Source: Gemmatimonadota bacterium
GTDB taxonomy: Bacteria; Gemmatimonadota; Gemmatimonadetes; Longimicrobiales; Gaopeijiaceae
DNA length: 54,974 bases
Assembly (NCBI GenBank): GCA_039589315.1
Contig: JBDHHQ010000023.1
Coordinates: 1-54,974 of the forward strand
Direction of reading: 5' to 3'
Made by a program: the position numbers. This document shows, piece by piece, positions 21,001 through 24,000 of this stretch; position 1 is the stretch's first letter, and each line of letters opens with the position of its first letter.

Positions 21001-24000
21001 GTCCTCACCCGTTGCGATCCTGGGATCGCGCCGGGAAAGCGCCTGCCGCCGGCGTCGCGCGGCCGCGAGACAGTCCAACGCGCGATTCGTAGCCACGCGG
21101 TACAGCCAGGCCCGGACGTTGCTACCGGGTCCGGCGTCGGGTGGGTTCTCCAGGGCCGTGATCCAGACCTGCTGGAGCACGTCCTCGGCGTCGGCGGCGC
21201 TGGACAGCATCCGGGTCAGGTGGCGCCTGAGCTCGGGGGCATAAGCCCCGGCCCAGGCCTCGACATCGGGTTCGCTGGACGCGCCGGCTACGGGCGTCAT
21301 GGGGTTCACCCGACCGTCCCCCCCGGCGAGCCCGGCATGAGGATGAGAAGAACCTGACCCATCAGCAGCGCGGGAATCCCCACGGTGACGGCGAAGAGGA
21401 AGAAGAGCTCGGTCGTCATTTCGATTGTGCGTCGTGCTCGATCCAACATGGTCCCACTCCCGTTTCCTGGTTGGGCGTCCCGCTCCCCGCGAGATCGATG
21501 CACCCTTGAAACGGGTGAGACGCGCTGGCGTGAAAACACCCGCCACAAGTGGTCAGGTGCCCGCGTCTCCAGGCTCCAGTCCCTCGACCATGTGCTCCCA
21601 CCGCTCCGAATCCCGGGTCCCTGCCGGACGGTACAGGATCACATGGGCCTTCTCCAGCGTGATCAAGCCACCGTCGATCATACGGTCCAGCTCGGCCAGG
21701 GCGTCCCGAATCGTCTCCTCCCGTTCCACGACCTCGACGATCACGGGGAGATCCTGGGACAGGCGGAGAATCTTGCCCGTGTGAAGCCTGGCGGACGCGC
21801 CGAAGCCCGCGGTACCCCGCACTACCGTCGCACCCGCGAATCCCTTCTCGCGGAGCAGCAGGACGACCGCCTCGTAGAGCGGGCGCCCCCTGTACGCGCC
21901 CTCTTTGCAGCGGTCGCTGTCCCCGAGGAAGATCCGCATCAGGGTGCGCTCGCCTTCGAATCTGTGCGGCATGCCTACCCCCGTGACCTGACGAGCACGG
22001 TAGCCAGGGCCAGCCCGACGACCACCGCCAGGGACGCCAACACCACGCTGCCGAGAACGTAACCGCCGGCGCGGGTCCACTCGCCGTCCTGGAAAAGAGC
22101 CACGGACTCGTACGCGAACGTGCTGAACGTCGTGAAGCTGCCCAACAGGCCAATCGTCACGGCCTTCCGAAGCTCCGGCGACGCGAGACTGTTCTCGAAG
22201 TATACGACGGCAAAGCCCAGGGCCAACGAGCCCACGACGTTCACGGTCATCGTGCCCCAAGGAAACGCGTCGCTGAAGCGCTGGTATACGAAGCCGCTCA
22301 GCCCGTAGCGGGCCACGGCGCCCACAGCGCCCCCCAGCGCCACGTATAGCACGCCCATGGCATTCAGCTCCGGAGCGCCACGCGGACGACCCTACCGGAC
22401 CGCATGATGGCCACCGCCCAGAGGGGGTCTCGATCCGAGGGGTCGTCCACGAAGCCGCCTCGAACGGAGACCCTTTCGACCCTGCAAAGCTCGGTGAATC
22501 GCACTCGCTCGCCGGGATCCACGTGTCCGAGCTCCATCTTGTCTCGACCGAATGCGGTGACGCTCAGCACCGCACCGGACTCGTTCCACACTTCGACCTC
22601 ACATTCCGCGCTCACCGGCGCTGGTGTCGTCGAGGGTGCACAGGCACCCGCGGCGAACGCCAGGGCGATCAGGGACAGCGACCGAGAAGGGGTCATGGCA
22701 GCGGTGCCCTCTCCTCGGCTGGGCTGAGCGCTCCGGCGCCAAGCGCTCCGTCACGCCGAGGCCGGTCCATCAACCGCGGAACGCGTCGCGGCTGGGATCC
22801 CAGAAGGGATCGGTGAGGCCGACCTCGGCGAAGATCCTGGTCATCTCTTCCGGAGCCGGTCTCCGGGAATCGACCGTGAGCCGGTTTCCGTACCAGTGGA
22901 CCGCCAGATGCCAGAGCTGCCCAAGGTCCACGAGGGGGCGTCTCGGCAGGCCCCGGGTCAGACACCAGGCATCGACGTGGGCCTCCGACCGGAAGCAGAG
23001 CATGGTCTGTCACGTGTAGACGATGTCCTCCCACCAGAGTGCGGCCGGCACGGCGAAGTGCGTGAGGCAATCCGTCGGCGAAGGGCCGTCCTGGGCGACC
23101 TCGATGGTCATGGGATCTCCACAGTCGGCGCAGGACGTGCGCACCGTGCCGGCCCCGTGTAGCGCCGCCGGGATTCCGAGGGCGTCCCAGGCGCAGTTGG
23201 CGAAGTATCTGCGTCCTCCGACCTCGGCGACGAAGGGCGTGGCCACCGCCGAGAACGGCGGCGCCATCACGATCTCTCGGGTCTCAGTGGCCAGGACGAG
23301 CAGCCGCTTCTCGGCCAGAGAGTCGCAGGCGGCCCGCACTTCTTCCGCCGGGCGATCGAGACCCGCCGAGATCTCGGTCGTGGTGGGCACGCGGCCCGAG
23401 TCCGCGACGCGCTGGTAGATCCAGAGCTTGGTCGTGGTAGCGAAGTCCATCCGTTCCCCGTGTTGGCGCGTGAAACCGGAAGGCCGCCGGAGCCCGACTC
23501 ACGGCGGCGCGACCGAGACGCGTGACCTCGGCAGGCAGGCCTCTGTAACGCATCCGGCGCGGCAGCCTCGGCGCAGCCCACTGTGCGGGCGCCAAGGTGC
23601 GGGGGGCAGCCCGACGGTGCAACTCCGACTGGCCCTGCCCGGCTGGCCCAGAGCTTCACCTCACACGACGGCGTAGCCCACTCTCCCCCTCATCTCGACT
23701 CGGCGGTCGCTTCGGTGGTGTGATGAGGGCAGTCCGAGGCGCGTACGACCGAGGGTCTGGCCTCTCCCGGATGATGCCTGCCGAGAGGGTCTCTCCCCAA
23801 TGCGTATCCTCCGCGGATGAGTCTGGCTGCTCATGGGTCGTCTTCTCGTTGGAATCGCTCTCTCGACCCTGTTCGTCCTCGTCCCGGTTGCCCCCCTCGT
23901 CGCTCAGCCCGGCGTGCCGGGTGGCGGCGGCGGATCTGCGCCGAGGCACCTTGCCCGCTATTACGCCTACATGTTGGAGAAGGTGCAGGAGATCACGAGT

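Follow-up and report, generated by a model that had tools for sequence, protein, structure and literature searches.

A gene split at an in-frame TGA in a Gemmatimonadota bacterium encodes a MerB-like protein with a probable selenocysteine at the position of the second catalytic cysteine

We report that a gene of a Gemmatimonadota bacterium that had been called as two open reading frames very probably encodes a selenoprotein of the MerB fold. The gene lies on contig JBDHHQ010000023.1 (assembly GCA_039589315.1), in the window, by which we mean the whole stretch of 54,974 nucleotides that was analysed. The explanation that we favour as a whole is that the gene is decoded through selenocysteine (Sec), and that its product is a predicted carbon-metal(loid) lyase that would work independently of MerA and belongs to a subfamily in which Sec forms and Cys forms both occur. 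We put the probability of this complete reading at roughly 0.55.

By its open reading frame, the gene is a single unit of 226 sense codons on the minus strand (22770..23450), running from an ATG at 23450..23448 to a terminal TGA at 22772..22770. It replaces two earlier ORF calls, 23010..23450 (146 aa, ending at a TGA) and 22770..23003 (77 aa). The initial annotation had proposed that these calls are one 226-codon gene with an in-frame TGA, and this stands: both calls are on the minus strand in one frame, and the Pfam MerB domain spans the TGA. The latter is codon 147 (23010..23012), and reading it as U gives W-W-E-D-I-V-Y-T-U-Q-T-M around the site. The read-through protein matches Pfam MerB (PF03243) with 92.1 bits against a gathering threshold of 27, over model positions 1-126 of 126; because this match runs over residues 66-188 (22887..23255), the domain crosses the TGA. 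A profile search of the whole genome in which TGA was allowed recovered the gene as one PF03243 match with the same coordinates, 84.6 bits and a single TGA.

The in-frame TGA is conserved among relatives of the gene. One scan found 333 species-level genomes with a relative, of which the best 80 were kept (47-60% identity). At the aligned site, all 80 of these best genome loci have TGA, as does the gene itself; the earlier count had been 75 of 80 with five unresolved, and none is unresolved now. The same is true of 80 of 80 loci of relatives from metagenomes. The terminal stops of the 81 genome loci, on the other hand, are mixed (TGA in 37, TAG in 31 and TAA in 12, with one lying beyond the end of its contig). 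Mean identity to this gene, calculated over 66 relatives, is 58.4% downstream of U147 versus 47.3% upstream. The window gene's clade is all-Sec among every sampled locus. More distantly, 40 full-length relatives mostly carry Cys at the Sec site (33 sequences), with W in three and H, Y, A and R once each. The genome also has the machinery for Sec: a tRNA-Sec scores 75.1 bits (cut-off 47), and SelB (335 bits), SelA (531 bits) and SelD (370 bits) are all above their curated cut-offs. In a 301-genome sample of the phylum, SelA was detected in all 32 other genomes with a TGA copy, versus 242 of 301 genomes overall, and the two copies that have no TGA (G203 and G136) reside in genomes with no SelA match. 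We are highly confident that codon 147 is decoded as Sec by way of a downstream hairpin and SelB, and that codon 227 terminates.

This SECIS-type hairpin is located at 22981..22996 on the minus strand. It comprises a 6 bp stem (22996..22991 with 22986..22981) and a GGUC loop (22990..22987); the stem begins 13 nt 3' of TGA-147 and the hairpin overlaps the codons for C-F-R-S-E-A. The minimal SECIS of E. coli fdhF has a GGUC loop, the G and U of which touch SelB. Our hairpin is like the fdhF type in being short, in following just over ten nt after the UGA and in having a four-base GGUC apical loop. Unlike it, the stem here is only 6-7 bp long and lies wholly within conserved F-F-R-S-E codons, and a bulged U is not evident in the main clade.

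The case for the hairpin rests on comparative evidence, its thermodynamic folding not being significant. Across relatives, a stem of 6-7 bp (alignment columns 16-22 with 27-33) carries the GGUC loop. In 81 sequences, 98.7% of cells are paired and compensatory changes are present; none of 500 shuffles matched the observed pairing or covariation score, and when the stem partner was slid out of register, pairing fell to 44-70%. The pair 17-32 is UA in 22, CG in seven and GC in one member of a wider set, and divergent Sec forms have the hairpin in an unchanged register with U-A replaced by C-G. The initial annotation raised the concern that part of this conservation is driven by the protein. We find that the conservation goes beyond that, because within the hairpin the choice among synonymous codons is forced: Arg is CGG in 79/81 (33% elsewhere in the same genes), Ser is TCG in 79/80 (33%), Glu is GAA in 74/81 (25%) and Phe is TTC in 153/153 (77%). 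The hairpin is both the MFE and the centroid structure of 24-nt and 48-nt stretches (-8.5 kcal/mol). It is absent from the 81-nt MFE fold, and the folding energy of the region is not distinguishable from that of shuffles (z -1.39 to +0.75; -0.18 for 81 nt). An Rfam scan of positions 20000-26000 at E up to 1 gave no match, that is, neither a SECIS family nor a fluoride riboswitch near crcB.

We modelled the read-through protein with AlphaFold2 (pLDDT 96.4, pTM 0.92) and compared it with the PDB using Foldseek. The top 11 matches were all MerB or MerB2 (E 1.5e-11 to 6e-7, TM 0.56-0.72 by target), and the 12th had an E of 0.09. In a profile alignment to MerB C160S (3f2g), Cys86, Asp89, Cys107 and Sec147 fall on C96, D99, C117 and C159, respectively, and a phmmer search of the PDB aligned U147 with the Cys of G-T-C-K-Q in MerB2 (5c17, E 9e-6). 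Cys86 and Asp89 are part of F-A-N-C-A-W-D (residues 83-89, 23184..23204), while Cys107 (23130..23132) lies on the Cys of S-S-H-C in 3f2g. In the alignment of the Sec clade, all 68 sequences have C86, W88 and D89, the set of Cys86, Asp89 and Sec147 is intact in 68/68, Cys107 and Cys163 are each conserved at 90% or more, and His131 and Trp162 are invariant. Residues 189-226 (22773..22886) form a C-terminal extension that is kept across the MerB-like subfamily, with R190, R197, L212 and W217 invariant in the subfamily alignment. The 226-aa protein contains no thioredoxin-like CxxU or UxxC motif. These models and alignments support a full-length MerB-fold gene that retains Cys96 and Asp99 and whose predicted selenocysteine falls on MerB Cys159; the initial annotation's placement of Sec at the catalytic Cys159 position of a full-length MerB-family protein is borne out by the 3f2g profile alignment and by Foldseek, and its NCBIfam, PDB phmmer and 333-relative figures were reproduced.

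The protein nevertheless differs from characterized members of the fold. It shares with MerB (EC 4.99.1.2; 3f0o, 3f2f, 3f2g) and MerB2 (5c17) the fold itself (about 195-205 aligned columns, TM 0.64-0.72 by target), the positions of the catalytic Cys, the Asp and the structural Cys, and an F-F-x-S stretch after the second catalytic residue. Unlike these, it has only 20-23% identity to them and scores far under the curated cut-offs (40.7 bits versus 193 for NF009710 and 34.2 versus 200 for NF033555); no NCBIfam model claims the family. Compared with MerB, it also has Sec for Cys159, 38 additional conserved C-terminal residues and no mer operon, and MerA is usually absent from the genome.

Relatives were found in 39 of the 301 genomes sampled from the same phylum and in 966 protein clusters from one protein search; the titles of their records mention Gemmatimonadota, Acidobacteriota, Chloroflexota and Verrucomicrobiota, among others. 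In public records they appear as fragments of 146-163 aa titled "hypothetical protein" or "Alkylmercury lyase". We constructed a phylogenetic tree (LG+G4) with rows that include Pseudomonas MerB, Bacillus MerB3 and a MerA-adjacent Bradyrhizobium MerB-like protein. The subfamily is placed apart from all three of these proteins (SH-aLRT 98-99). Further Sec groups with the same hairpin, as well as many Cys forms, fall within this one MerB-like subfamily. Well-supported branches force at least two Sec/Cys changes, and we claim no more than this minimum because the deeper branching order of the Sec and Cys groups is poorly supported. The new obligate-Sec branch of MerB that was initially proposed is therefore upheld in that the clade is all-Sec in the sampled loci, but it is not isolated, as other Sec groups and Cys forms share its subfamily.

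The Cys-form relatives, such as a "hypothetical protein" of the Ralstonia solanacearum megaplasmid and proteins of the "alkylmercury lyase family", are 26-43% identical to the Sec gene over the full length. Like it, they have the C-terminal extension and no mer context, and they read T-C-x-T where the gene has T-U-x-T. They differ in having Cys for Sec, and often Cys or another residue at the Asp99 position, which among 41 relatives is D in 24, C in 10 and something else in seven. Because of this variation among Cys relatives, the subfamily may have more than one chemistry. The SECIS hairpin is absent from both Cys forms that we inspected (L117 and L118). The neighbours of the R. solanacearum Cys form (DUF2000, an HTH regulator and a threonine aldolase) offer no functional hint. 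On balance, we lean towards a MerB-like subfamily with alternating Sec and Cys forms that is separate from canonical MerB, MerB3 and, judging by score, motif and context, SaoL.

We also examined the genomic context and the occurrence of MerA. Each flanking family is limited to 7 of 81 loci at most, in agreement with the earlier statement that there is no conserved neighbour gene, and there is no mer gene among the neighbours in the stretch examined. The best MerA match in the source genome, which is 95% complete, scores 392.8 against a cut-off of 454. Among the 33 carrier genomes of the phylum sample, two have MerA; in family f1, MerA is found in 0 of 47 genomes and the Sec MerB-like gene in 15 of 47. 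The source genome also encodes a second, canonical-looking Cys MerB-like protein, in a gene adjoining a metal-sensing repressor.

Several alternative explanations must be weighed against these data. It is hardly credible that the TGA is a genuine stop (through two genes, a pseudogene or a sequencing error) or encodes Trp under another code. In public records, standard gene callers do leave only 146-163 aa of the protein, and the entries of three relatives show W at the site. However, TGA and frame are kept in 160 of 160 independent loci (the best 80 of 333 genome loci plus 80 metagenome loci), the part downstream of the TGA is the better conserved, and both halves are needed for the Pfam domain and for a confident fold. 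Furthermore, 37 of 80 relatives, like this gene, end in a normal TGA stop, and the code is therefore not table 4 or 25. One of the W-bearing records, P0004, is unlikely to be a true Trp form: it nests inside the Sec clade, and the metagenome relatives fetched with it have TGA in 80/80. Membership in the SaoL family is likewise very improbable, although SaoL is the closest parallel in its active site. According to the preprint that describes it (Haft and Gwadz, bioRxiv 10.1101/2022.07.06.499078), SaoL (NF040728) is a MerB-like organometallic lyase selenoprotein of the SAO (selenocysteine-assisted organometallic) locus. It has 213 aa with C-U, rarely C-C, at 161-162, it occurs in anaerobes only, with a skew to Firmicutes, and it is the hallmark of a nine-gene locus (with SaoA, B, P, X, E, C, T and D), in which an ABC transporter, an efflux pump and further selenoproteins are encoded. 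Because its Sec162 aligns with MerB Cys159, Sec at this position has already been described. Our gene resembles SaoL in that both are MerB homologues, about 213-226 aa long, with a single Sec there, in keeping the Cys96 and Asp99 equivalents, and in being cut at the UGA in public records, and 66 of 68 family members match the SaoL model at E up to 1e-3. Yet the gene scores 40.2 bits against a cut-off of 140, over residues 26-120 and ending at model position 131 of 159, before U147, and the best E among the 68 members (9.2e-17) is about equal to that for the MerB model. The motif is T-U rather than C-U in 81/81 sequences, and the gene occurs by itself, in soil-type phyla (among them Gemmatimonadota, Acidobacteriota, Chloroflexota and Verrucomicrobiota), instead of in the nine-gene neighbourhood of largely Firmicute anaerobes that the preprint reports. 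In searches that had no positive control, the genome gave no match for SaoB or SaoC, and a SaoP-like match of 55 bits versus 295. Score, motif and context thus support the conclusion that the gene is not SaoL. The initial annotation was right to separate the two, but SaoL is not short, as it had held, since by the preprint's account it reaches 213 aa with Sec at the Cys159 position.

A further possibility is that the protein confers mercury resistance as a canonical organomercurial lyase, partnered with MerA as plasmid MerB is. The Pfam match and the MerB fold agree with this, as does the presence of three of the four residues used in merB curation (PMC12874090), the fourth, Cys159, being Sec here. 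We consider it unlikely, given that the gene is under both NCBIfam MerB cut-offs, that the tree sets it apart from Pseudomonas MerB, Bacillus MerB3 and the Bradyrhizobium protein, and that mer genes are absent from the stretch examined and MerA above cut-off from the 95%-complete genome. The distribution in family f1 argues in the same direction, and a canonical-looking Cys gene is already present beside the repressor. We take more seriously, though still as the lesser possibility, that the same selenoprotein has a role other than that of a lyase, i.e. metal(loid) or selenium binding or trafficking, redox chemistry through a Cys86/Sec147 selenenylsulfide, or sensing on a MerB scaffold. Such a role would fit the lack of mer context and of conserved neighbours, the scarcity of MerA in carriers (2/33) and the variable Asp99 position among Cys relatives. 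It would also leave room for further conserved residues with no assigned role, Cys163 and the invariant His131 and Trp162, and most prokaryotic selenoproteins are redox proteins, according to PMC9312934. Against it, the full MerB catalytic set is invariant in 68/68 Sec-clade sequences, the fold matches MerB only, and a thioredoxin-like CxxU or UxxC is missing.

In the explanation that we favour, the hairpin 13 nt past UGA-147 would recruit SelB and Sec-tRNA(Sec), so that codon 147 would be read as selenocysteine, and the TGA at codon 227, which has no SECIS, would end translation. The product would be a cytosolic MerB-fold protein of 226 aa with an active site of Cys86, Asp89 and Sec147, in which Cys107 would match the structural Cys117. 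Cys86 and Sec147 would bind a soft metal, and the departing carbon would receive its proton from Asp89. From homology, we give about even odds to protonolysis of a carbon-metal(loid) bond as the function; the faster or differently specific lyase that was initially suggested is a conjecture. Our best guess is that the putative lyase is independent of MerA, being a stand-alone enzyme that would not pass its product to MerA. In PMC8261052, catalysis by MerB only is considered problematic, and how a MerB-type enzyme might act without MerA is left open. By our own reasoning, an Hg-Se bond should hinder product release further. We counted the non-significant folding energy of the hairpin region, the sub-cut-off MerB scores, the missing mer gene, the scarcity of MerA, the lack of a conserved neighbour and the variation at Asp99 against our explanation. 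More speculatively, and with a rather low probability, the Sec MerB-like proteins, together with related Sec groups that share the hairpin, could act in soils and sediments as a demethylase or dealkylase that needs no mer operon, with methylmercury or other organometal(loid)s as substrates. If this is true, selenolate chemistry would allow the enzyme, in the absence of MerA, to turn over or to keep the metal tightly sequestered.

Sec at the second catalytic cysteine of MerB is not new, having been published for SaoL, but we found the T-U subfamily neither in print nor in NCBIfam. In full-text literature searches, MerB-type selenoproteins were found only as SaoL or as an "alkylmercury lyase MerB-like protein", and this family was not found. 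The 2008 GOS paper names MerB neither in its text nor in the four supplements searched. Supplement 4 of Peng et al. 2016 lists an "Organic mercuric lyase MerB2" selenoprotein in 17 organisms that are not named there, and a member of the T-U family may be among these 17.

The family is common, yet public annotation holds it as shortened fragments. This matters for surveys of mercury genes, some of which keep merB matches only if they have Cys96, Asp99, Cys117 and Cys159 (as stated in PMC12874090). Such residue-curated surveys will drop Sec MerB-like genes, because the called ORF ends before "Cys159", and surveys with less strict HMM criteria may register the fragments as merB. As a second lineage with Sec for Cys159, and one whose subfamily also contains natural Cys forms, these proteins provide a natural comparison for the role of selenium at a metal-binding catalytic site. 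They also bear on how a MerB-type enzyme could act without MerA, the question that PMC8261052 leaves open.

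The Sec gene lies on the minus strand (22770..23450), where a TGA closes a first ORF of 146 codons (23450..23010) and a second open stretch directly follows in the same frame, running up to a TGA at 22772..22770. When the first TGA is read as U, the joined ORFs translate into a 226-residue protein that has F-A-N-C-A-W-D as residues 83-89 and, surrounding residue 147, W-W-E-D-I-V-Y-T-U-Q-T-M. Residues 66-188 match the Pfam MerB model over positions 1-126 of 126 (92.1 bits). Because this match covers the whole model across the TGA, the domain needs both halves, and we agree with the initial annotation that its two gene calls are one gene; its NCBIfam and PDB figures were exactly reproduced.

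We then asked how the TGA is conserved. A scan of one genome per species returned 333 relatives, and among the best 80 of these 333 loci (47-60% identity) the aligned codon is TGA in all 80, as it is in the window; the earlier count had been 75 of 80. The terminal stops of these genes vary (TGA 37, TAG 31, TAA 12, with one gene running off its contig). TGA was also found in 80/80 of the metagenome loci fetched with a relative. Across 66 relatives, identity to the window's copy is 58.4% 3' of the TGA versus 47.3% 5' of it. An exhaustive search of representatives yielded 1554 relatives at E <= 1e-3, and 40 full-length representatives, once aligned, carry at the Sec site Cys (33), W (3), or H, Y, A or R (one each). 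Three public protein records (P0004, P0132 and P0148) have W at this position. Because P0004 falls within a group of TGA-bearing genes, that W probably arose when a metagenome gene caller applied a Mycoplasma-type code to a TGA.

The genome (G000) encodes the machinery for selenocysteine insertion: tRNA-Sec (75.1 bits, cut-off 47), SelB (335 bits), SelA (531 bits) and SelD (370 bits; contig C5:69192-70112, locus L091). There is one in-frame TGA in the SelD match, which makes the selenophosphate synthetase another probable selenoprotein. We also sampled 301 genomes from this phylum: a family match at E <= 1e-10 is present in 39, with an internal TGA in 33 of them, G000 counted. All 32 other TGA-bearing genomes are among the 242 of 301 with SelA, a tally that takes in the unpublished genomes G157 and G057, and two genomes with no-TGA family matches (G203 and G136) are without a SelA match. 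As the sampled genomes are related to each other, we give no statistics for this co-occurrence. One genome (G098) has two TGA-bearing copies (C84:9920-10561 and C40:6294-6932) and also MerA.

Thirteen nucleotides 3' of the TGA, the family has a hairpin (U-U-C-U-U-C-C, G-G-U-C, G-G-A-A-G-A-A) with a 7 bp stem and a four-base loop, lying on the codons of F-F-R-S-E-E. A GGUC loop likewise occurs, at roughly this distance from the UGA, in the minimal SECIS of E. coli fdhF. Over 81 sequences, 98.7% of cells are paired and three pairs show changes in both partners; out of 500 shuffles, none scored as high as the real alignment for pairing or for covariation, and pairing falls to 44-70% when the 3' partner is slid along. 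The window's version has 6 bp with one G-U pair, and in it a G-C replaces the U-A of the others, with the protein changes F-to-C and E-to-A. It is the MFE and centroid structure in 24-nt and 48-nt stretches (-8.5 kcal/mol) and is not in the structure chosen for 81 nt. Folding energies of the region are no better than those of shuffles, and Rfam gave no match to it. The concern about protein-driven conservation of the hairpin was tested by codon choice, which shows that the protein is not its only cause: codons in the hairpin are skewed relative to the same genes elsewhere: CGG for Arg (79/81 vs 33%), TCG for Ser (79/80 vs 33%), GAA for the first Glu (74/81 vs 25%) and TTC for Phe (153/153 Phe codons vs 77%). 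Moreover, 17 divergent Sec forms of the window's phylum (34-42% identity) keep the hairpin in register using different codons (for instance G-C-C U-U-C C-G-G U-C-G G-A-A G-G-G), and when 37 sequences are combined in a mixed alignment, pair 17-32 is UA in 22, CG in 7 and GC in 1. The hairpin is absent from two Cys forms of the same phylum, and one hairpin is common to all Sec members of the subfamily. We conclude that the window gene is a real, well-supported selenoprotein gene, with a probability of roughly 0.93 that its in-frame TGA is decoded as Sec.

We next examined the fold and active site. An AlphaFold2 model (pLDDT 96.4, pTM 0.92) was built from a 68-row alignment covering 66 of the 80 loci; in four no start was parsed, and ten were dropped to thin near-duplicates (L033, L042, L053, L059, L060, L073, L075, L081, L084 and L085). 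Foldseek against the PDB found 11 matches at E <= 6e-7, all MerB or MerB2 (TM by target 0.56-0.72), the next (E >= 0.09) being winged-helix proteins that cover only the N-terminal ~60 residues. Aligned to E. coli MerB C160S (3f2g, residues counted via the printed chain numbering), the family profile places C86 on C96, D89 on D99, C107 on C117 and the Sec column on C159. All 68 rows share C86, W88, D89, T146 and U147.

The protein scores below the cut-offs of two NCBIfam MerB models (40.7 vs 193 and 34.2 vs 200) and of the SaoL model (40.2 vs 140), and no other model in the June 2026 release fits the family. We constructed a first tree of 79 rows by a quick LG+G4 search (34 of 67 Sec rows, every second being dropped, with 40 representatives and 5 references). 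The Sec rows group with the W-bearing P0004 in a single clade (SH-aLRT 99) inside a 75-row subfamily (SH-aLRT 99), outside of which fall Pseudomonas MerB, Bacillus MerB3, a MerA-adjacent Bradyrhizobium MerB-like protein and the second MerB-like gene of G000. The subfamily includes a "hypothetical protein" of the Ralstonia solanacearum megaplasmid (34% identity). In a second tree with the 17 divergent Sec forms added, at least four Sec groups lie among Cys forms; its backbone is unresolved, and its well-supported branches force at least two Sec/Cys state changes. On these trees the proposed "new obligate-Sec branch" stands in part: as sampled, the window's clade is all-Sec, but the subfamily is a Sec/Cys mosaic. 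The Sec forms of G000's own taxonomic family (L099-L111) belong to a different Sec group and are 34-42% identical to the window's copy, whose nearest relatives (55%; compare L008 and G214) come from another family of the phylum and from other phyla. This distribution suggests lateral transfer or old paralogy.

Sec at this site has been described before. In a preprint by Haft and Gwadz (bioRxiv 10.1101/2022.07.06.499078), SaoL is a MerB homologue of 213 aa; it has a C-U motif at 161-162, its Sec162 superposes on MerB Cys159, and it marks a nine-gene locus of anaerobes only; the contrast first drawn with a "short SaoL" was therefore wrong. SaoL is the only MerB-type selenoprotein in tables of two reviews, and a supplement of Peng et al. 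2016 has 17 "MerB2" selenoproteins with organisms not named. Whereas SaoL has C-U and its nine-gene locus, the window's subfamily has T-U and is stand-alone. Within the full-text literature searched and NCBIfam of June 2026, this T-U, stand-alone, widely distributed subfamily and its SECIS appear to be new; public records hold it as truncated fragments.

Consistent with the initial annotation's finding of no conserved neighbour, no flanking family occurs in more than 7 of 81 loci. Downstream of the window's copy, all on the minus strand, are a small protein with no Pfam match (22696..22364), crcB (fluoride channel) and a DUF190 gene (21553..22358), an ECF-type sigma factor gene followed by a zf-HC2 anti-sigma zinc finger fused to a 6-O-methylguanine DNA methyltransferase (Ogt/Ada-type; 20057..21546), and then cupin and PanE genes. 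Rfam found neither a fluoride riboswitch nor any other family over 20000-26000. Genes for a SAM methyltransferase and an S1/P1 nuclease lie 5', also on the minus strand. In the ~680 bases upstream (23451..24134) there is no Rfam match and no confident gene; the sole candidate is a plus-strand 101-aa ORF (23833..24138) whose N-terminus is hydrophobic and which has no Pfam match. Farther off, a 483-aa protein (27369..28820, plus strand) pairs SIR2-like (PF13289) and TIR (PF13676) domains, as is typical of anti-phage defence proteins.

Finally, we considered function. No MerA over the cut-off was found in G000 (95% complete). Across the phylum sample MerA is over its cut-off in 31 of 301 genomes but in only 2 of the 33 carriers (G098 and G214), counting the unpublished genomes G182 and G057; in one family (f1), 0/47 genomes have MerA and 15/47 the Sec gene. 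The second MerB-like gene of G000, canonical-looking and with ordinary Cys residues (contig C33:2863-3249; locus L095, 1450..2331, minus strand; Pfam MerB 76.7 bits), has the motifs A-W-C-A-L-D and F-F-C-S-R-V-W-F-F. Directly 5' of it is a metal-sensitive repressor (PF02583, 74.5 bits; CsoR/RcnR-type), with a weak DUF6410 membrane-protein match also upstream. This arrangement resembles a conventional metal-responsive unit more closely than that of the Sec gene. The genomic context argues against a classical mer-operon resistance role for the Sec gene. We rate a lyase function as an even bet, and the catalytic triad argues for MerB-type protonolysis of a carbon-metal(loid) bond.
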